Assembly: GCA_902760865.1 (NCBI GenBank) | Contig: CACWID010000010.1 | Span: 16,864 to 80,863 of the forward strand | DNA length: 64,000 nt | Reading direction: 5' to 3' | From: an uncultured Bacteroidales bacterium | GTDB taxonomy: Bacteria; Bacteroidota; Bacteroidia; Bacteroidales; Muribaculaceae | Shown here: piece after piece, positions 1,978-50,946 of the stretch | How the letters are laid out: the number at the start of each line of letters is the position of its first letter | Numbering within the stretch: the stretch's first letter is position 1 | Translations under genes and position numbers: made by a program | The notes under the pieces: generated by a model | Told to the model about the DNA's origin: nothing | Database searches by the model: none | The model's input: only the letters and a program-made list of their open reading frames with translations

Positions 1978-3990
1978 ATGACAAACATGACAAGATTTAC
2001 TACTCTTTTCTCGCTGATTTTGCTGTCAGCAGTTGTGGCGTTGGCCGGCCCTCGCCACTATTCTAGTAACATCGAGGGTGATGTCAATGCCGACGGTGAC
2101 GTCAACATCGCCGACATCAACGTTGTCACCGATGCCATCTTGAGCTACCGTTGGGACGCCAGGTGTGACGTGAACCACGACGGTGACATCAACATCGCCG
2201 ACATCAACTACCTCATCGACCTGATCTTCAACGGCCCGGCATTGCCGATCGTTGACACGGGCATGTACATGGGCGTGATCGGCTACAACCAGACGCTGAC
2301 CACCAAGGAGATTTCCTATCTCGACTCGACCACCATCGAGGAGTTCAACGCATTTGTCGACGGATTGACCACGCAGCCCGGTAGGCTCCTGTACTACTCT
2401 GTTGACCAGGCCCTGGATGCACTGAACAACGCAATTCTTCCCAAGAACCTGCAGAATGTGGCCGTCGTGACCTTCACGGGCGGTCTGGACCAGGGTTCGC
2501 TGATGATGACCGACAAGTATGAGACCGAGTCAGAGTATGCCCAGGCCATCAGCTCCCGACTGGCCGACGAGCGCATCTATGGCCGTCCCATCAAGGCTTA
2601 CACCATCGGTATGCTCAATCCCACCGTCAAGGACGAGGCTCAGTTCCGTGCCAATCTCTACGCCCTCGCCAGTGACTCGGCCAAGGCAATGGAGGTGAAC
2701 AATATGGCCGGTGTTGCCGCCAGCTTCAACACCGTTGCCGAAGACCTGGTTGCTCACAACATGTCTGAGAATCTGACCCTCGTGTTCCCCGGTGTGGGAA
2801 CCGGTACCCGCATCCGCTTCACCCTCGACGATGTCACCGAGGAGAACGTCGATGAGTCTCAGGTGTACATCGAGGGCGTCTTCTCGCTGAAGAGCCGCAG
2901 CCTGACCAACATCACCTATCATGGCATGACCTGCATGGCCGGTGACAGCGTCGCTGCAACGAGCGAGGACGGCATGTTTGTAACCCTCGTCTTCAACGGC
3001 ATCCAGCTCAACAGCGAGGAGCGCATCAATAAGGACAAGATCCAGGAGTGGTATTGGGTAGAGGACCAGGAGGTATGGGCTGCCAGCACCGAATTCTCGG
3101 CAAGCCGCATCCCCGAGCCCGAGGGCTCCTATGCCAGCGCACTGGTGATGCTCGTGCTCGACTGCAGCTCGGTTGTTGAGGACTGCATGGGCGAGTTGCA
3201 GGCAGCAGCCAACAACTTCGTAGAGCGCATGCAGAACTACACCACCGTCATCATTCCCGACACGATCCCCGGTCTGTACACCGTCAATGGCGTATCCTTC
3301 CAGATGGTCGATGTTGAGGGCGGAACCTTCAAGATGGGTGTTGACAATGAGTATTATGAGGCTGGTGTGGCCAACATTGACGAGCTACCTGCCCACGAGG
3401 TGACCGTTTCCTCGTTCTCGATCGCCGAGACCGAGGTGACCCAGGAACTGTGGAATGCCGTGATGGGCACCAACCCCAGCACCTTTACCGGCGACCTGCA
3501 GCGTCCCGTCGAGAATGTCAGCTGGGAGGACTGCCAGGAGTTTATCACACAACTCAATGCTCTGACAGGTATGAACTTCCGTCTGCCCACCGAGGCTGAG
3601 TGGGAATATGCCGCTCAGGGTGGCAACATGGGCGCAGGTACCTTCTACGCCGGCAGCGATGACATCGATCTCGTCGCTTGGTATTACAGCAATAGCTATA
3701 TTCTCGGCAGCGAGAATCCCGACTACGGAACCCATGCTGTTGCTTCCAAGGAGGCCAATGAACTTGGTCTGTATGACATGACCGGTAACGTGTATGAGTG
3801 GTGCAGCGACTGGTATGGCGCCTACAACGCCGAGTCCCAGACCGATCCCGTCGGTCCCGAGATGGGCAACGAGCGCGTGATCCGTGGTGGTAGCTGGGTC
3901 AGCATCCGCCGCGACAGCCGCAATACCTCACGCAACAGCGAGGCTCCCGAGTATCGCGACTTCCACGTGGGCTTGCGTCTCGCCCTCTGA
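1978..3990 (+). CDS. secreted multidomain protein: N-terminal dockerin-type repeat pair, vWA-like middle, C-terminal FGE-sulfatase (SUMF1/EgtB/PvdO) domain
   Basis: Signal peptide MTNMTRFTTLFSLILLSAVVALAG. Ca-binding repeat pair DVNADGDVNIADIN and DVNHDGDINIADIN. The C-terminus (GGTFKMG...HEVTVSSFSIAETEVTQELW...VSWEDCQEF...RLPTEAEWEYAA...GNVYEWCSDWY...RGGSW) fits the FGE-sulfatase fold signature. Confidence 0.8.
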   Translation: MTNMTRFTTLFSLILLSAVVALAGPRHYSSNIEGDVNADGDVNIADINVVTDAILSYRWDARCDVNHDGDINIADINYLIDLIFNGPALPIVDTGMYMGVIGYNQTLTTKEISYLDSTTIEEFNAFVDGLTTQPGRLLYYSVDQALDALNNAILPKNLQNVAVVTFTGGLDQGSLMMTDKYETESEYAQAISSRLADERIYGRPIKAYTIGMLNPTVKDEAQFRANLYALASDSAKAMEVNNMAGVAASFNTVAEDLVAHNMSENLTLVFPGVGTGTRIRFTLDDVTEENVDESQVYIEGVFSLKSRSLTNITYHGMTCMAGDSVAATSEDGMFVTLVFNGIQLNSEERINKDKIQEWYWVEDQEVWAASTEFSASRIPEPEGSYASALVMLVLDCSSVVEDCMGELQAAANNFVERMQNYTTVIIPDTIPGLYTVNGVSFQMVDVEGGTFKMGVDNEYYEAGVANIDELPAHEVTVSSFSIAETEVTQELWNAVMGTNPSTFTGDLQRPVENVSWEDCQEFITQLNALTGMNFRLPTEAEWEYAAQGGNMGAGTFYAGSDDIDLVAWYYSNSYILGSENPDYGTHAVASKEANELGLYDMTGNVYEWCSDWYGAYNAESQTDPVGPEMGNERVIRGGSWVSIRRDSRNTSRNSEAPEYRDFHVGLRLAL

Positions 3991-40908: not shown

Positions 40909-41640
40909 ATGAAATACAATGAGCAAACCAAGCAATGGGAATCGCCCTACTGGCATCCGGCTGTGACGACCGACGCAGTCGTGTTCGGCTTTGACGGCGT
41001 GGGGCTGAATGTCTTGCTCATCCAGCGCGGCCTGGACCCTTACAAGAACATGTGGGCGCTGCCTGGCGGATTCATGCGTCGCGAGGATGAGAGCGCCGAG
41101 GCCTGTGCCTATCGCGAGTTGCACGAGGAGACTGATGTGGACGACATCTACATGGAGGAGTTAGGTACGTTCTCCAGCCGCAATCGTGACCCGCGCGAGC
41201 GCGTCATCACCATCGCCTTCTTTGCCCTGGTGGTCAAGGACAAGTACCATGTCATGGGCGGTGACGATGCCAGCAATGCCAAGTGGTTCCCGGTCAAGGA
41301 ACTGCCCGAATTGGCCTTCGACCACGCGGATATCGTAGCGTTAGCCCTCGAACGGCTACGCCAGCGCATCCACTTCGAGCCCATTGGATTTCACTTGCTT
41401 GACAAGGAATTCACAATGCCCCAGTTACACAATATTTATATAGCTATTTTGGATCCGCCCGAGGATGACATGAAACTTAGAGACAGAAGAAATTTTCAGA
41501 AAAAGATGTTGAATCTCGGGTATATCAGGGAGACCGGATACAAGGTGACAGGAAACCCTCACCGTGCTCCCAAGTTGTACACTTTTGACGAAGAAGCCTA
41601 CCAGCAAGCCAAGAAGATAGGCATGCGCCTAGAGTTCTGA
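40909..41640 (+). CDS. NrtR-family protein: Nudix hydrolase domain fused to C-terminal winged-helix DNA-binding domain
   Basis: 243 aa. Nudix box GGFMRREDESAEACAYRELHEETD. C-terminal LAFDHADIVALALERLRQRIHFEPIGFHLLDKEFTMPQLHNIY...RNFQKKM...APKLYTF matches the NrtR wHTH architecture. Confidence 0.75.
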   Translation: MKYNEQTKQWESPYWHPAVTTDAVVFGFDGVGLNVLLIQRGLDPYKNMWALPGGFMRREDESAEACAYRELHEETDVDDIYMEELGTFSSRNRDPRERVITIAFFALVVKDKYHVMGGDDASNAKWFPVKELPELAFDHADIVALALERLRQRIHFEPIGFHLLDKEFTMPQLHNIYIAILDPPEDDMKLRDRRNFQKKMLNLGYIRETGYKVTGNPHRAPKLYTFDEEAYQQAKKIGMRLEF

Positions 41641-41937: not shown

Positions 41938-43122
41938 ATGAAAATTCCATTTAAGAGAAACAAGAGTGCGGCCCCTATGGCCAACGAAGGATGCCCTACA
42001 GGGAATGGTATGAATCAGGAACCCGAGGCCGACAACGGCCAGGAGAAGGTGTGTATGGACCCCAAGAAAGCCCACGTCTATAACCTCATCATCGTCGATG
42101 AGAGCGGTTCGATGGGTGGTCTGGAGCAGGTGACCATCAGCGGTATCAACGAGACCATCGCCACCATCAGGAAGGCGCAGGAGGACTTTGCCGACAAGCA
42201 GCAGCACTTCCTCACGCTGGTCACGTTTGACGAGAGAGGGGATGCGCATCCCGTCCGAACCCTCATCGATGCCATGCCCATCGGCGACGTGCATGACTTC
42301 CATGATTACCGTCCCACTGGCTGCACGCCCCTGTTTGACGCCATGGGCCAGTCGCTGACCCGGTTGCATGAGCGCATCAAGGACGATGAGAACGCCACGG
42401 CAGTGGTGACCGTCATCACCGACGGCCTGGAGAACGCCTCCCGCGAGTGGACGGGCGAGGCCCTGCGTAACCTCATTGAGCGCCTCAAGGAAGAGGGCTG
42501 GTCCTTCTCCTACATGGGCTCGTGCCACGATGTGGTCGAGGTGACCAGGAGATTGTCTATCGACCACGTGATGCAGTTTGACCACGATGATCTGGGCGCG
42601 TCCAACACGTGGCACCGCGACAGCTCATCCAAGTTTGCTCACTTTCGCCGTATGTGCTGCGAGTTTGATGCCAATGACAGCCGAGAAATGAAAATGGCCA
42701 AGCGCCGTGCCCAAGCTAGCGCCTACTATGCCGACCGCGTTACTCCCGACTGGATTGAGCAGCTAGCCGACAACGAGATCTTTGTCTTCGGCAGCAATCC
42801 CCAGGGGAACCATGCCGGCGGTGCCGCCGCCCATGCGGTGAAGAACTTCGGTGCCATCATGGGTCAGGGCGAGGGTCCCCAGGGCCAGAGCTACGCCATC
42901 CCCACCACGGGCGATTTCGTCCTGTTTGCTCAGGCAGTGCAGCGCTTCGTGTACTATGCCAGCCAGCATCCCGACCAGCGATTCCTGGTTACCCGCGTGG
43001 GCTGCGGCAGCGCGGGCTACGACGTGCATAGGGTGGCACGGCTGTTCGTCGATGCCATCAAGCAGGAGAACATTGCCCTGCCTATGGACTTCTGGATGCA
43101 CCTGGGCCTCAGGATGTTCTAG
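41938..43122 (+). CDS. cytoplasmic vWA-domain protein fused to a C-terminal Rossmann-like (LOG/DprA/SLOG-type) module
   Basis: 394 aa with no signal peptide. vWA domain with MIDAS residues D54-E-S-G-S58...TGCT...TDG. C-terminal EIFVFGSNPQGNHAGGAAAHAVKNFGAIMGQGEGPQGQSYAIPT...VTRVGCGSAGY recalls small phage-associated FVFGSN...HGxGAA...SYAIPT proteins (from memory). Confidence 0.6.
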   Translation: MKIPFKRNKSAAPMANEGCPTGNGMNQEPEADNGQEKVCMDPKKAHVYNLIIVDESGSMGGLEQVTISGINETIATIRKAQEDFADKQQHFLTLVTFDERGDAHPVRTLIDAMPIGDVHDFHDYRPTGCTPLFDAMGQSLTRLHERIKDDENATAVVTVITDGLENASREWTGEALRNLIERLKEEGWSFSYMGSCHDVVEVTRRLSIDHVMQFDHDDLGASNTWHRDSSSKFAHFRRMCCEFDANDSREMKMAKRRAQASAYYADRVTPDWIEQLADNEIFVFGSNPQGNHAGGAAAHAVKNFGAIMGQGEGPQGQSYAIPTTGDFVLFAQAVQRFVYYASQHPDQRFLVTRVGCGSAGYDVHRVARLFVDAIKQENIALPMDFWMHLGLRMF

Positions 43123-43226: not shown

Positions 43227-43265
43227 GGAGGGCTCGCCAAACCACCTCGGCGGGCCCTCCGTTTT
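43227..43265 (+). terminator. rho-independent terminator of the vWA-fusion gene
   Basis: GGAGGGCTCGCC...GGCGGGCCCTCC stem followed by GTTTTGCTT. It marks the left edge of the AT-rich island. Confidence 0.65.
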
Positions 43266-43631
43266 GCTTCATTCAAATTGTCTGACTACGGGATTTAATT
43301 GATGATAAAGAAAAAAACATTATACATCCTGTTTACATGATATTGCTGAATAAGGGCATCCGTTCATATTTGTATTCGATTAGTCCTTATACAAATTTGC
43401 CTCATCTTGTGTATGCATTTGGGGTTTGCTATACTTAATTCTTTATCGTAACAGGAAAAAACTGAAAAAAAACTTGTACACATCCATTTTAATAACGAAA
43501 TTTGCGGACAAGATGTGGATTCAGTGATACAATTCAAACGGCCCTTTTTTAGTTGTTATTGTATTGTGAATCATTATTATGTACGAATTTCTGATTTTCG
43601 TTATATTTTTTATTCAAGCAAAGTTGGGCAG

Positions 43632-44531
43632 ATGGCTGAAGATTACGATATATTTATTAGCTATAGGCGTGATGGCGGTTTCGCAACTGCAAATCATATC
43701 TACAAATTGCTGACTCGAGATGGATATTCTGTCTGTTTTGATGTTGATTCACTCCGAGAAGGTGATTTCAATATCAATGTCTTGAATAGTATAGATCAGT
43801 GTACTGATTTCCTGCTTATTGTAGATAGGCATTGTTTTGACAAAACTTTGGATAGTAATTTTGATTCAAGATATGATTGGTTGAGGATGGAATTAGCATA
43901 TGCCTTGAAACAGGACAAGAATATTGTACCAATACTCTTGAATGGCATCAATAATTTCCCCCAGAATTTGCCTGAAGATATTTGTGCTGTAACAACTAAG
44001 AATGGGCCTGAGTACAATCAGAGTTACTTTGATGAGTTTTACAATAAATTGAGATTATTCCTTCGTAGTAATCCTAAGAATATCCGTTTCTCCCATAAAA
44101 AAAAGATACTGGTAAGTGCTTTTATTATTGTAGCATTAGTATTAGCTTACTTGTTTAAAGTGCCTGATGGTTTTGGGAGCAAAGTTATTGAAGTCGAGGA
44201 TTCATTGTGTATAAATCCGGTTCTGGGACAATTTAAATATACTGGTCCAATTGATCAAGATGGCCTGCCTCATGGAAAGGGTAAAGCAGTATTTCCCATA
44301 GGGGATACCTATGAAGGGGATTTTTCTCATGGTAAGTTCGAGGGGAAATGTATCTATAACCATGTCGAGGTGGGTGATAAGTTTTACGGAACTTATAAGG
44401 ATAATGTGAGATATGAAGGCACCTATGTCTGGCAAGACGGTCCCTATTTTACTGGTTTGTATAAGAATAATGAGTTATATAAAGGTACACTATATGATGT
44501 TAGTGGGAAAATTCTCATGAAATATAAATAG
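43632..44531 (+). CDS. TIR domain - single TM - MORN-repeat protein
   Basis: Start at ATG 43632 (MAEDYDIFISYRRDGG). TIR motifs DIFISY and DWLRMELAYAL (putative catalytic E87). TM segment ILVSAFIIVALVLAYLF. C-terminal MORN-like repeats YEGDFSHGKFEGKC, YGTYKDNVRYEGTY and FTGLYKNNELYKGT. AT-rich gene. Confidence 0.7.
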   Translation: MAEDYDIFISYRRDGGFATANHIYKLLTRDGYSVCFDVDSLREGDFNINVLNSIDQCTDFLLIVDRHCFDKTLDSNFDSRYDWLRMELAYALKQDKNIVPILLNGINNFPQNLPEDICAVTTKNGPEYNQSYFDEFYNKLRLFLRSNPKNIRFSHKKKILVSAFIIVALVLAYLFKVPDGFGSKVIEVEDSLCINPVLGQFKYTGPIDQDGLPHGKGKAVFPIGDTYEGDFSHGKFEGKCIYNHVEVGDKFYGTYKDNVRYEGTYVWQDGPYFTGLYKNNELYKGTLYDVSGKILMKYK

Positions 44532-44621
44532 AAAAATTATTATCGTATAGATTGATGTAATTATTGAATATCAGAAAAAACGATGCGGAATTAGTTTTTC
44601 ACTAAATATAATAAAAAGAAT

Positions 44622-45164
44622 ATGAAACGAAGAGGCAGAATATATATATTGGTATTATTGGTGTTTTGTCTGAGTTCCAGCTGTAATAAAAAGAATCAGA
44701 ATATTACAGGTAATTCTTCACAGGATACGGTAACGGTATCAAGTGATAGTTCTATTATTCATTCAAGGAATGGATATGACACATTGAGAGTTGATAATGA
44801 TTCATTGGATGCTATAGTCAGAACAAGAGATTCAATAGCGAGTGAAAAACGACATGATAGTATCGGAATAGTTCGTGAAAAGAATCATCAACAAGAACCT
44901 TCTGGAAACAATCAGAAACCGAATAATCAGAATGATACAAAAGCAAATGATAAAGGTGTAAAACCATCAACGCGACCGTCTGACAAAAAAACGAGATCTG
45001 ATGATCGAAAAACTGTCACTCAAAAACCTTATAGAGCCCCACTTGGAGCAGGAGAAGGGTCAGAGGATGGATCAGAGGGGGGAGGATACAACCCTGGCCC
45101 ACCTCAAGCAACACCGCCTATAAAGTATCCATTGCCTCATAAACCTAGACCTAAAGGGAGATAG
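44622..45164 (+). CDS. low-complexity lipoprotein, unknown function
   Basis: 180 aa. Lipobox LSSSC. Ser/Asn/Lys-rich with a Gly/Pro-rich C-terminus. AT-rich like the neighbouring TIR gene. Confidence 0.5.
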   Translation: MKRRGRIYILVLLVFCLSSSCNKKNQNITGNSSQDTVTVSSDSSIIHSRNGYDTLRVDNDSLDAIVRTRDSIASEKRHDSIGIVREKNHQQEPSGNNQKPNNQNDTKANDKGVKPSTRPSDKKTRSDDRKTVTQKPYRAPLGAGEGSEDGSEGGGYNPGPPQATPPIKYPLPHKPRPKGR

Positions 45165-45392
45165 CAGTCGCTTGAAGTTTTTGACTTTGACAATGGTATA
45201 GTTACATTGCCGATGGTGAGATGCGATAATTGGCTAGAAGGAATGTGTGTCGTTGGGAGTTGCCCTAATAGATAGCACTCTGTTTTTAGGGATAATTTGG
45301 TGATGTTCAACACAGTTTTATGATTTTATCATTTTCTGTGAAAGAATTCTCTTAATTTGTGGACTAGTAAAGTATTAATTGTTAGAATAGAT

Positions 45393-49765: not shown

Positions 49766-50006
49766 ATAGCGGTAGGGTGGGGCATCAGGACATGGGGCGG
49801 GAAAGTCAGTTTTTCGTGCTTTTTGGCCCTACTGGAAACAATTATGACCGATTTTAACAATTTTTCAATGTAATTTTAGAAATATTAGATACTTATATTT
49901 GGTCAAAACCACCGATTGTAGTAATTTTGCAACAAGTTTTTTCATAGGATTAGATTTTTAAGGTTTAAAGTGTACGCGTGTTGGGAAACAGGCGTACATT
50001 TTTTTG

Positions 50007-50014
50007 TAAATTTG
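50007..50014 (+). promoter_or_regulatory. -7 box TAAATTTG
   Basis: 12 nt upstream of the rnz ATG at 50026, implying a very short leader. Confidence 0.5.
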
Positions 50015-50025
50015 CAGTCCGAAAA

Positions 50026-50946
50026 ATGACCCGATTAGACTTGAACATACTGGGATGCGGGAGCGCGACGATGACGCCGCGCCACCAGCCGTCGTGCCAG
50101 GTGCTGAACGTGCGCGACAACCTGATGATGATCGACTGCGGCGAGGGAGCCCAGCTGGCCGTGCGCCGCATGGGGCTCAAACTGATGCGCCTCAACCACA
50201 TCTTCATCAGCCACCTTCACGGCGACCACTGCTTCGGGCTGCCGGGGCTGGTATCGACGATGGCGTTGCTCAACCGTACCAATTCGTTGACGATCCACAC
50301 CTTCCAGGACGGGGCAGAACTGTTCGGGCAGATGCTGGACTACTTCTGCCGCGAGCGGCCGTTCGAGGTGCGCTTCAATGTCATCGATACGCATAAACGT
50401 GTCATCCATGAGGACGATGCCATGACGGTAACCACGTTCCCGCTCGTCCACCGCGTGCCGGCAGTGGGTTTCCTGTTCCAGGAAAAGCCCAAGCTGCGCC
50501 ACATCATCGCCGACGAGGTGCAGCGCCTGGGCGTGCCGCACTATGCCATGAACTCGCTGCGGCAGGGCGAGGATTGGGTCACCCCCGACGGCGTCATCGT
50601 CCCCAACGAGCAGTTGACCACCGCAGCCGACCCCGCCATCAGCTACGCCTACTGCAGCGACACCAAGTTCTCGCGTCGTGTCATCAAGAGCGTTGAGGGC
50701 GTGGACTGGCTCTACCATGAGGCCACCTACGACGACACCCTGCGCATCAAGGCCCACAAGCGCTACCACAGCACTGCACTCGAGGCCGCCACCGTCGCCC
50801 GCGAGGCCGGCGTGAAGCAGCTCATCCTGGGCCACTTCTCCAAGCGCTACGTGGACGACACGCCCCTGCTTGACGAGGCCGTCACCGTCTTTCCCGCCAC
50901 GCGCCTGGCCAACGAGGGCATGGTCATCGACCTGAACCAGCCGTGA
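50026..50946 (+). CDS. rnz: ribonuclease Z
   Basis: Start at ATG 50026 (MTRLDLNILGCGSA). Metallo-beta-lactamase motif HLHGDHCFGLPGL. ~306 aa. Confidence 0.9.
   Translation: MTRLDLNILGCGSATMTPRHQPSCQVLNVRDNLMMIDCGEGAQLAVRRMGLKLMRLNHIFISHLHGDHCFGLPGLVSTMALLNRTNSLTIHTFQDGAELFGQMLDYFCRERPFEVRFNVIDTHKRVIHEDDAMTVTTFPLVHRVPAVGFLFQEKPKLRHIIADEVQRLGVPHYAMNSLRQGEDWVTPDGVIVPNEQLTTAADPAISYAYCSDTKFSRRVIKSVEGVDWLYHEATYDDTLRIKAHKRYHSTALEAATVAREAGVKQLILGHFSKRYVDDTPLLDEAVTVFPATRLANEGMVIDLNQP

Follow-up and report, generated by a model that had tools for sequence, protein, structure and literature searches.

Gene content and boundaries of the island

An AT-rich island with two genes lies within the 64,000-nucleotide (nt) stretch analyzed here (contig CACWID010000010.1 of assembly GCA_902760865.1, positions 16,864 to 80,863 of the forward strand), which comes from an uncultured Bacteroidales bacterium of the Muribaculaceae and is called the window in the following, with all positions given in its own numbering. 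The first gene (43632..44531, + strand) encodes a protein of 299 amino acids (aa), predicted from its open reading frame (ORF), Pfam matches, homologs and AlphaFold2 model to cross the membrane once, with an N-terminal TIR domain inside, one transmembrane (TM) helix and a C-terminal MORN domain outside, and is referred to as the TIR-TM-MORN gene. The second gene (44622..45164, + strand) encodes a low-complexity lipoprotein of 180 aa, recognized by its signal peptide, its lipobox Cys21 and its place after the TIR gene. Other ORFs of at least 50 aa in the island are only short antisense ones, overlapping either gene or the flanks.

The composition of this DNA sets it apart from its surroundings. 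Measured in 300-nt segments, the G+C content amounts to 0.27-0.43 across 43250-45350 as compared to 0.55-0.65 in the flanking genes, and positions 43266-45392 contain 34.9% G+C overall, this being the sole stretch of more than 2 kb below 0.42 G+C in the window (mean 0.558, standard deviation 0.07). Similarly, the G+C content at third codon positions (GC3) amounts to 0.33 in the TIR gene and 0.24 in the lipoprotein gene, as opposed to 0.78 in the upstream gene annotated as vWA, 0.85 in the downstream GH31 gene and 0.70 in the Nudix gene. The sharp drop in composition reported in the initial annotation was thus reproduced by both sliding-window G+C and GC3.

Junction alignments define the edges. 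Homology to related loci ends right after the conserved terminator hairpin of the upstream vWA/A1S_2505 gene (43227..43265, + strand; GGAGGGCTCGCC...GGCGGGCCCTCC followed by a T-run), which aligns with the equivalent element in related loci, and hence the left edge is at ~43266. The right edge is at ~45315-45325, with an uncertainty of ~10 nt, and is followed by the native GH31 promoter and leader (45316..45392, + strand), which aligns, TCTTTTATCTTTGCAG block included, with the conserved region preceding GH31 in related species and forms the right boundary outside the insertion. The inserted AT-rich DNA therefore comprises ~2.05 kb with 35% G+C (43266..45315, no strand assigned), as delimited by composition, absence in relatives and these alignments. 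Of the span originally proposed, the left edge after the terminator holds, while the right edge at 45392 had to be moved inwards because the last 70-80 nt are the conserved GH31 promoter/leader. Signatures of mobility could not be found: no integrase or transposase marks the island, no tRNA gene is present in the 64-kb window, and no flanking direct or inverted repeats of note were detected at the island edges, in agreement with what had been stated initially and now extended by tRNA, repeat and ORF checks.

Insertion site and stability of the cassette

Species-representative genomes were scanned with the upstream vWA-like protein, which yielded 12 relatives with 69-82% identity, all of them rumen or gut metagenome-assembled genomes labeled as Sodaliphilus, Muribaculaceae, Prevotellaceae or Bacteroidales. 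The order dnaB-Nudix-vWA is kept in all 12, GH31 follows directly in 11 of them, and the gap between vWA and GH31 measures ~190-330 bp in most. Neither the TIR protein nor the lipoprotein is encoded in any of the 12 (tblastn). Deviant composition together with absence from syntenic relatives confirms that the island is a genuine horizontally acquired insertion, and non-native codon usage with absence in 12 related species bears out the earlier proposal of an acquired AT-rich two-gene island. In some relatives the same spot is occupied by unrelated genes (contigs and proteins are cited by our L and P numbers), namely by a gene for a 225-aa protein with multiple TM segments (L022:9355-10032), by a gene for a 263-aa secreted protein with dockerin-like repeats (L026:9443-10234), or by a larger rearranged block with a regulator containing tetratricopeptide repeat (TPR) and helix-turn-helix (HTH) domains and surface proteins of leucine-rich repeat (LRR) type (L020:9200-14200). 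Therefore, the vWA-GH31 intergenic spot is a hotspot for accessory genes without visible mobility genes, and the cassette entered this variable spot in one lineage of rumen Muribaculaceae (Sodaliphilus-like).

Within its own lineage the island is stable. The exact 299-aa protein is present on 14 metagenome contigs from independent samples, each time in the identical context, and the island occupies the identical site in five variant lineages (L114 and L117-L120), with both reading frames intact in all five. Comparison of cassette copies revealed no shared untranslated or boundary sequence, the coding sequence alone being common, and no carriers were found among viral contigs or in the phage and plasmid databases, where plasmid matches were limited to a distant TIR on Paraburkholderia megaplasmids.

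A SARM1-type TIR domain with a conserved W-x3-E site

The start of the TIR-TM-MORN gene is placed at ATG 43632 in preference to GTG 43515, since the homologs all open with M-x3-YDIFISY. Residues 1-145 (43632..44066, + strand) form a TIR domain of SARM1 type according to phmmer searches of PDB sequences, BLASTP and Foldseek. Pfam TIR_2 (PF13676) matches aa 7-125 with 40.4 bits against a gathering score of 28 (E=4.8e-10). In phmmer searches against all PDB sequences, the first 19 matches all belong to SARM1 or to TIR-1, its ortholog in the worm (E=1e-18 to 2e-16, aa 3-147), and the next-best TIR matches are far weaker (TIR-SAVED at E=0.04, TLR2/15 at E=0.1). Human SARM1 TIR shares 36% identity across 139 residues with 2 gaps (BLASTP). 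An AlphaFold2 model built from 22 orthologs (mean predicted local distance difference test score, pLDDT, 83.8) pointed in the same direction, as Foldseek ranks 1-22 against PDB are all SARM1 or TIR-1, with target-normalized TM-scores of 0.84-0.89 between the predicted structure and chains of the isolated TIR domain. The TIR assignment made initially was thus upheld by profile, PDB-sequence and fold searches, although its framing as a bacterial NADase-type TIR had missed that the nearest solved relative is animal SARM1 and not a bacterial TIR.

The predicted active site is retained. The segment DWLRME, containing W83 and E87, matches SARM1 DWVHKE residue by residue (phmmer, BLASTP), so that the presumed catalytic Glu87 (codon 43890-43892, + strand) aligns with SARM1 E642 and Trp83 (codon 43878-43880, + strand) with SARM1 W638, as anticipated when E87 was first proposed as the catalytic Glu in a W-x3-E context. 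The W-x3-E motif occurs in 120 of the 120 homologs listed. With SARM1 numbering set by anchoring E642 in the alignment, further identical residues are Y11 (Y568), R12 and R13 (R569, R570), D37 (D594), L41 (L598), G44 (G601), F46 (F603) and N124 (N679). All the identities, including W83 and E87, are invariant in the 22-ortholog alignment save L41, which is conserved in at least 90%, and SARM1 E596 is replaced by Asp. The roles of the aligned SARM1 residues (Y568, R569, R570, D594 and others) are those given in the SARM1 literature, in part in PMC7075850. The Glu and the BB loop are important for the SARM1 TIR (PMC7075850). These comparisons firmly support the assignment as a SARM1-type TIR whose predicted catalytic W-x3-E site is intact.

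Membrane topology and the MORN ectodomain

A hydrophobic stretch at aa 157-181 (hydropathy) coincides with an AlphaFold2 helix at aa 155-174, and the TM helix is accordingly placed at aa ~155-176 (44094..44159, + strand), also with regard to its positive-inside flanks. The flanks of the helix carry a net charge of +6 (N-terminal) and -3 (C-terminal), and therefore the TIR domain is predicted to be cytoplasmic and the MORN domain periplasmic. The protein has no signal peptide, and beta-strand A begins at residue 7. The extracytoplasmic domain (aa 186-299; 44187..44528, + strand) contains two conserved Cys residues and was identified by Pfam, PDB matches and modeled strands. Pfam MORN (PF02493) matches with 28.5 bits against a gathering score of 22.5 (E=1.2e-6), MORN1 and the radial-spoke protein RSPH1 in PDB match at E=2e-9, and the AlphaFold2 model contains ten beta strands over aa 186-298 with pLDDT 88-95. 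By eye, four MORN repeats and a capping strand could be read from the sequence, in line with the three or more repeats suggested before. Hydropathy, model and flanking charge likewise support the orientation given in the initial annotation, and an inner-membrane receptor-like layout with a cytoplasmic N-terminal TIR, one TM helix and a periplasmic MORN domain is firmly supported as a prediction.

This layout bears on whether the protein could be a host-directed or interbacterial TIR toxin, like TcpB/BtpA or NADase toxins, with the lipoprotein as immunity protein. Gut bacterial TIRs with NADase activity exist (PMC9092222) and the two-gene arrangement resembles a toxin-immunity pair, but the TIR is N-terminal and lacks a signal peptide or a secretion/delivery domain, the topology would put it in the cytoplasm of the producing cell, where a lipoprotein of the periplasm would be unable to neutralize the enzyme, and no markers of type VI or type IX secretion systems are found nearby, which makes such a function scarcely credible.

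The distribution of the ectodomain is more informative. Searching a library of 1.8 billion proteins with the ectodomain only gave 9386 matches, mostly generic MORN proteins, among which solely matches covering the full length in a single stretch are informative. In these, the same module is found behind one TM helix in three kinases of the Ser/Thr type (P0156, P0210, P0268), in two TIR proteins of other subfamilies (P0122, P0126) and in proteins with an unknown N-terminal domain (P0200, P0227), and it also occurs on short-tailed membrane proteins and, in secreted form, behind a signal peptide (P0132, P0133). Because the same module sits on Ser/Thr kinases, this distribution supports a role of the MORN ectodomain as an extracytoplasmic sensor or interaction module that would be swapped among signaling outputs.

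The lipoprotein partner and the wider protein family

The 180-aa lipoprotein, a small disordered protein, carries a signal peptide with the lipobox MKRRGRIYILVLLVFCLSSSC and a tail enriched in S, K, P, N, G and D. It had been described as a low-complexity lipoprotein from the start, a description that the signal peptide and Cys21 uphold, yet it is not mere incidental content of the island, since in each of the 8 independent contexts examined, the gene after TIR-TM-MORN encodes a small lipoprotein with signal peptide, lipobox Cys and a low-complexity tail of mainly polar, charged and Pro/Gly residues. Lengths vary, with 180 aa in the window lineage, 92 in L010, 76 in L015, 93 in L034, 90 in L035, 147 in L115, 190 in L116 and 180 in L114. 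Sequence similarity among the partners is weak, with a common NDS-L/I...DS...E-K/R patch, Cys21 invariant in an alignment of five partner lipoproteins, and a C-terminal ATPPIK-F/Y-P motif in the window subclade. Among 5.8 billion proteins, homologs of the lipoprotein form 3 clusters only. The residues following the Cys are basic or neutral, which we take to mean that the acidic surface-export signal of Bacteroidetes lipoproteins is absent, and for this reason the lipoprotein likely faces the periplasm. As judged from its constant position, the lipoprotein is firmly supported as a conserved partner of the TIR gene, and its divergent sequence probably evolves fast.

The TIR-TM-MORN protein had been regarded as an architecture not described for defense, and it turned out not to be an isolated oddity, as at least 241 cluster representatives of the family are detectable by homology search. 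About 23 of these 241 are full-length TIR-TM-MORN proteins with 52-94% identity, while the remainder share the N-terminal TIR only (44-67% identity over 44-76% of the query), mostly with one TM helix and differing C-termini, which include FGE-sulfatase/C-type-lectin, Sel1, WG_beta_rep, BACON, Lcl_C or aspartyl-protease-like domains, or none. From these comparisons, the family is a large and uncharacterized one of gut and rumen Bacteroidales, in which a near-constant SARM1-type TIR with a TM helix is combined with a variable ectodomain. The TIR-TM-MORN architecture is absent from the conflict-systems paper of the Aravind laboratory (PMC7159879) and from a survey of gut TIRs (PMC9092222).

The nearest relatives beyond the window lineage, P0002 (74%) and P0003 (65%), have ~36% G+C, even with neighboring genes at 0.40-0.50. 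Orthologs at 57-60% identity (L010, L015, L034, L035) have native G+C (0.57 versus 0.56 for the contig, and 0.495 versus 0.47) and a conserved position beside genes for CD225/GYF_2 and DUF2752 membrane proteins, and thyA, folA and lpxB are located near the ortholog on the longest contig, L010. In L010:6956-7848, L015:37-993 and L011-L014, this native-G+C TIR-TM-MORN gene and the CD225/GYF_2 and DUF2752 pair are transcribed divergently, and the pair was not transferred into the window genome.

Selection and recombination

The ratio of nonsynonymous to synonymous substitution rates (dN/dS), calculated for ten pairs among the five island variants and hence from small counts and non-independent pairs with evident recombination, is 0.00-0.24 for TIR aa 1-145, 0.37-1.58 for the TM plus MORN half and 0.52-1.32 for the mature lipoprotein. 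From these ratios, the conclusion that the TIR domain is functional and constrained by purifying selection appears robust, and a faster change in the periplasmic parts is no more than suggested. Recombination is apparent from L118 (2103-2648) and L119 (1507-2052), which have identical lipoprotein genes and differing TIR genes (dS 0.05 in the TIR domain) and hence argue for exchange in the island among co-existing lineages. Synonymous divergence is also unequal between segments in other pairs of island variants.

Purifying selection is difficult to reconcile with a non-enzymatic scaffold, in which the TIR would serve as a protein-interaction module, or with a decaying foreign passenger devoid of function. 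Such readings could draw on the facts that many TIR domains are scaffolds, that SARM1 H685 and K597 are not conserved, that no promoter motif was recognized and that the lipoprotein is a low-complexity orphan. Against them stand the low dN/dS of the TIR domain with both frames intact in all five variant lineages, the invariance of the catalytic Glu and most NAD-pocket residues across the 120 homologs listed, and the recurrence of the exact protein on 14 contigs from independent samples, and they are accordingly considered very improbable.

RyR-domain genes as neighbors of the family

At the level of the family, gene neighborhoods give a hint as to the signaling output. Genes encoding ryanodine receptor (RyR) domains (Pfam PF02026, above gathering score) lie within ~3.4 kb of the family TIR gene in 15 of 91 loci, all 15 falling among the 57 family loci of at least 6 kb, and none was found in 267 kb of control sequence. 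Their positions include L015:2347-2637, L115:1519-1800 and 2436-3536, L044:7877-8866, L090:263-2257, L068:2553-2858 and L110:175-489. Some are stand-alone RyR proteins of ~100 aa, one of which is encoded in L015 by the gene immediately following that for the ortholog's lipoprotein. Others are fusions of a C39-like peptidase with RyR (~330-350 aa), often preceded by a weakly sigma-like protein of 187 aa, and one is a fusion of RyR, TPR and adenylate/guanylate cyclase adjoining the TIR gene in L090. A recurrent module with the order TIR-TM-X, sigma-like 187-aa protein and C39-like peptidase-RyR is present in L044, L056, L077 and L115, with only its start contained on the short contig L049. According to a 2026 preprint (PMC13232231), phage proteins with RyR domains bind or cleave 2' and 3' cyclic ADP-ribose (cADPR) and are homologous to the Repeat12 domain of the ryanodine receptor. 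Since RyR genes adjoin family TIR genes and phage RyR proteins handle cADPR isomers, an output of ADP-ribose (ADPR) type is plausible for the family by analogy. No description of the linkage between RyR and TIR genes was found in the open-access papers searched.

A separate arrangement was observed on a rumen contig (L028:1-17500), which contains six TIR-domain genes, all different and including two that encode FGE-sulfatase ectodomains, interleaved with genes for an Hsp70-like protein, an M48 peptidase with a Zn-ribbon, a double-Zn-ribbon protein, a radical-SAM protein with a Cys-rich peptide-like ORF, and LRR/Sel1/TPR proteins. This array looks like a large multi-TIR conflict locus.

Gene neighborhoods of this kind can also be read in terms of normal physiology, with the protein acting as an envelope receptor similar to Ser/Thr kinase receptors, in which the TIR would make an ADPR-type signal that acts on transcription or proteolysis via RyR proteins and sigma-like factors without cell death. 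In favor of this reading are the ectodomain common to Ser/Thr kinases, the recurring module of TIR-TM-X, sigma-like and C39-RyR proteins together with the RyR-TPR-cyclase fusion beside a TIR gene, and the location of orthologs in housekeeping neighborhoods beside the CD225/GYF and DUF2752 membrane proteins. However, the sigma assignment is below threshold (Sigma70_r2 with 19 bits against a 24-bit cut-off), the window contains none of the partner genes, a mobile cassette with only a lipoprotein gene would be hard to wire into host regulation, and SARM1-type TIRs are fast consumers of nicotinamide adenine dinucleotide (NAD+) in studied cases, so that this reading is judged unlikely.

With comparably low confidence we put forward a broader proposal, namely that the protein would stand for a bacterial class of outside-in immune or stress receptors resembling Toll-like receptors (TLRs) and based on the closest bacterial relatives of the SARM1 TIR, in which a swappable periplasmic sensor (MORN, C-type lectin/FGE, Sel1 and others) would activate an NADase or cyclase in the cytoplasm, with an ADPR-type product that is read by RyR domains fused to peptidases or cyclases.

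Proposed mode of action and its relation to defense

The interpretation that we favor, held with about even confidence on the basis of sequence and modeling, is that the acquired two-gene cassette encodes a membrane receptor whose envelope-sensing ectodomain would control a cytoplasmic SARM1-type TIR that cleaves NAD+. The MORN ectodomain, possibly together with the lipoprotein, would read a cell-envelope cue, with candidates being a phage that attaches or injects, an attacking competitor, or damage to the envelope. Such a cue would alter the clustering of the receptor, and clustering would join the cytoplasmic TIR domains and turn on NAD+ cleavage, as in SARM1 and other catalytic TIRs. The output could be a depletion of NAD+ that arrests growth, a signal derived from ADP-ribose, or both, and in many relatives the signal could be read or cleared by neighboring RyR-domain proteins, a gene for which is lacking in the window.

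Several observations weigh against this favored interpretation. SARM1 H685 corresponds to Gln130 and the second BB-loop residue K597 to Ser40, and therefore neither activity nor product is to be assumed. The MORN repeats may simply mediate dimerization. The orthologs with 57-60% identity are syntenic with housekeeping genes, which fits physiological signaling at least as well as defense. The Bacteroidetes -7 motif TAnnTTTG was not found upstream of the TIR gene, its sole match being inside the coding sequence. No RyR-domain gene is present in the 64-kb window, even at E up to 10, and no effector gene accompanies the cassette there. Finally, dN/dS values above ~0.8 in the periplasmic parts rest on few substitutions in non-independent pairs, with recombination in the island.

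A narrower version of the favored interpretation takes the cassette as a stand-alone abortive-infection gene, with phage sensing at the envelope leading to NAD+ depletion and death or arrest, and with the lipoprotein as accessory or decoy. This would agree with a horizontally acquired, strain-variable cassette in a variable hotspot, with an intact predicted catalytic site, with a conserved TIR next to a fast-changing periplasmic half and lipoprotein as in an arms race, with weak PADLOC matches to ThsB and TIR effectors, and with single-gene TIR+TM systems known to defend E. coli (PMC11350192). On the other side, searches with PADLOC and NCBIfam gave sub-threshold ThsB/TIR matches only, the best Thoeris model reaching 27 bits against a 220-bit cut-off, there is no enrichment of known defense genes and hence no defense island in the window or in the neighborhoods of orthologs, carriers on phages, plasmids or viral contigs were not found, and the 57-60% orthologs are syntenic, have native G+C and look vertically inherited. 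A dedicated abortive-infection gene is thus considered rather unlikely. The defense framing of the initial annotation likewise gained no direct support, with Thoeris models far below cut-off, no ThsA-like effector adjacent to the cassette and orthologs located among genes of thyA/folA/lpxB type. An acquisition that varies between strains and went into a hotspot, and extracytoplasmic parts that evolve fast, would fit with defense, with the label itself being unproven.

Comparison with characterized TIR systems and receptors

By sequence and predicted fold, SARM1/TIR-1 is the nearest solved relative of the window TIR, with the DxFISYRR box 1, the BB-loop Gly, F603, W638 and E642 all matched. In contrast to SARM1, the window protein has no ARM or SAM domains and hence no allosteric control by nicotinamide mononucleotide (NMN) and NAD+ and no octamer formation, its TIR is N-terminal and membrane-tethered with an ectodomain, and it differs at the two positions given above (H685 to Gln, K597 to Ser). 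In published phylogenies the SARM1 TIR sits inside a mainly bacterial clade (PMC13142454, citing Zhang 2011), and one survey failed to find bacterial SARM1 homologs (PMC7075850).

With Thoeris ThsB the protein shares a bacterial TIR with the catalytic Glu, and family members often lie beside RyR proteins, that is proteins binding nucleotide signals, which recalls the logic of a TIR generator paired with a sensor-domain effector. It differs in that the cassette has no adjacent ThsA-type effector (SIR2-SLOG, Macro-TM, caspase, DUF2270 and others), the only co-transferred gene being that of a lipoprotein without family match, and in that ThsB is soluble and cytoplasmic whereas the window protein is membrane-bound with an ectodomain. 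RyR as a term is absent from the main text of the 2025 systematic survey of Thoeris.

Catalytic TIRs on a TM helix are also found in single-gene antiphage systems of E. coli (PMC11350192) and in Dictyostelium TirC (PMC13142454), for which membrane tethering was proposed to restrain or localize a dangerous NADase. Unlike the window protein, with its conserved 115-aa ectodomain and partner lipoprotein, those proteins have no folded extracytoplasmic domain. Features resembling TLRs, i.e. a TM helix with extracellular repeats, seem to be absent from bacterial TIR systems (PMC11350192). As in Toll-like and IL-1 receptors, an extracellular repeat domain is combined with a single TM helix and a cytoplasmic TIR, and the family varies its ectodomain on a constant TIR. 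However, the window protein has the opposite polarity (N-terminal TIR, type II), MORN repeats instead of LRR or immunoglobulin (Ig) domains, and a TIR of the enzymatic SARM1 type instead of a scaffold. The resemblance is convergent, and no homology is implied past the TIR fold.

PknB-type Ser/Thr kinase receptors are similar in that P0156, P0210 and P0268 carry the same MORN ectodomain behind one TM helix, and differ by having a kinase as output domain rather than a TIR (predicted NADase). The presence of this ectodomain on both kinases and TIR points to a shared extracytoplasmic cue, as far as domain architecture can suggest. BtTir of B. thetaiotaomicron, which makes 2'cADPR, was considered as a characterized relative and rejected, since it resembles AbTir and has its TIR at the C-terminus (residues 156-287).

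Neighboring genes in the window

The neighbors of the cassette include dnaB, an NrtR/AraR-type Nudix regulator, GH31, an M13 peptidase, acpP/fabF and rnc, and a second TIR gene was not found in the 64-kb window. The gene directly upstream (41938-43122, + strand) had been named after a vWA domain, of which only a weak match (E ~0.01) could be retained, the strong C-terminal domain being that of the A1S_2505 family ('phage non-structural protein', NCBIfam, 5.5e-36, aa 281-385). With its native G+C and its presence in 12 of the 12 relatives, it represents a core gene outside the island. Two genes upstream of the TIR gene, an NrtR/AraR-type Nudix regulator with NUDIX and winged-helix domains is encoded (40909-41640, + strand). 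NrtR regulators respond to ADP-ribose, which would make a link to the nearby TIR gene attractive, but this one is kept in island-free relatives and may instead regulate the GH31 sugar-utilization gene. Both the vWA/A1S_2505 gene and the Nudix gene were considered as functional partners on account of their NAD/ADP-ribose themes and were rejected, as both occur in all 12 island-free relatives and have native composition. Further downstream, a gene of metallo-beta-lactamase (MBL) fold (49978-50946, + strand) matches Pfam Anti-Pycsar_Apyc1 and Lactamase_B, with a 92% identical copy in L018, and probably encodes a housekeeping MBL or RNase-Z-like enzyme rather than an anti-defense protein.

Biological implications

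Catalytic TIR domains have a central part in immunity and cell death, in bacteria as well as in plants and animals, and to our knowledge the bacterial ones studied so far are soluble cytoplasmic sensors or effectors. The cassette described here would represent a SARM1-type TIR wired to the cell exterior through a TM helix and a sensor-like ectodomain found on Ser/Thr kinases as well, and its interest rests mainly on the SARM1 relationship, the receptor-like modularity and the lead offered by the RyR neighbors. It is moreover a clean case in which a small cassette has entered a conserved hotspot between genes without recognizable mobility machinery. If the receptor interpretation is correct, bacteria would couple sensing at the level of the envelope directly to NAD+ cleavage, the family would provide tractable bacterial models for the clustering-driven switch-on of SARM1-type TIRs, and the RyR neighbors of its members would make the old question of cADPR and RyR domains testable. 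Should the tentative proposal of a TLR-like receptor class also hold true, the animal axis of SARM1, cADPR and the ryanodine receptor would have an operon-level precedent in gut Bacteroidales.

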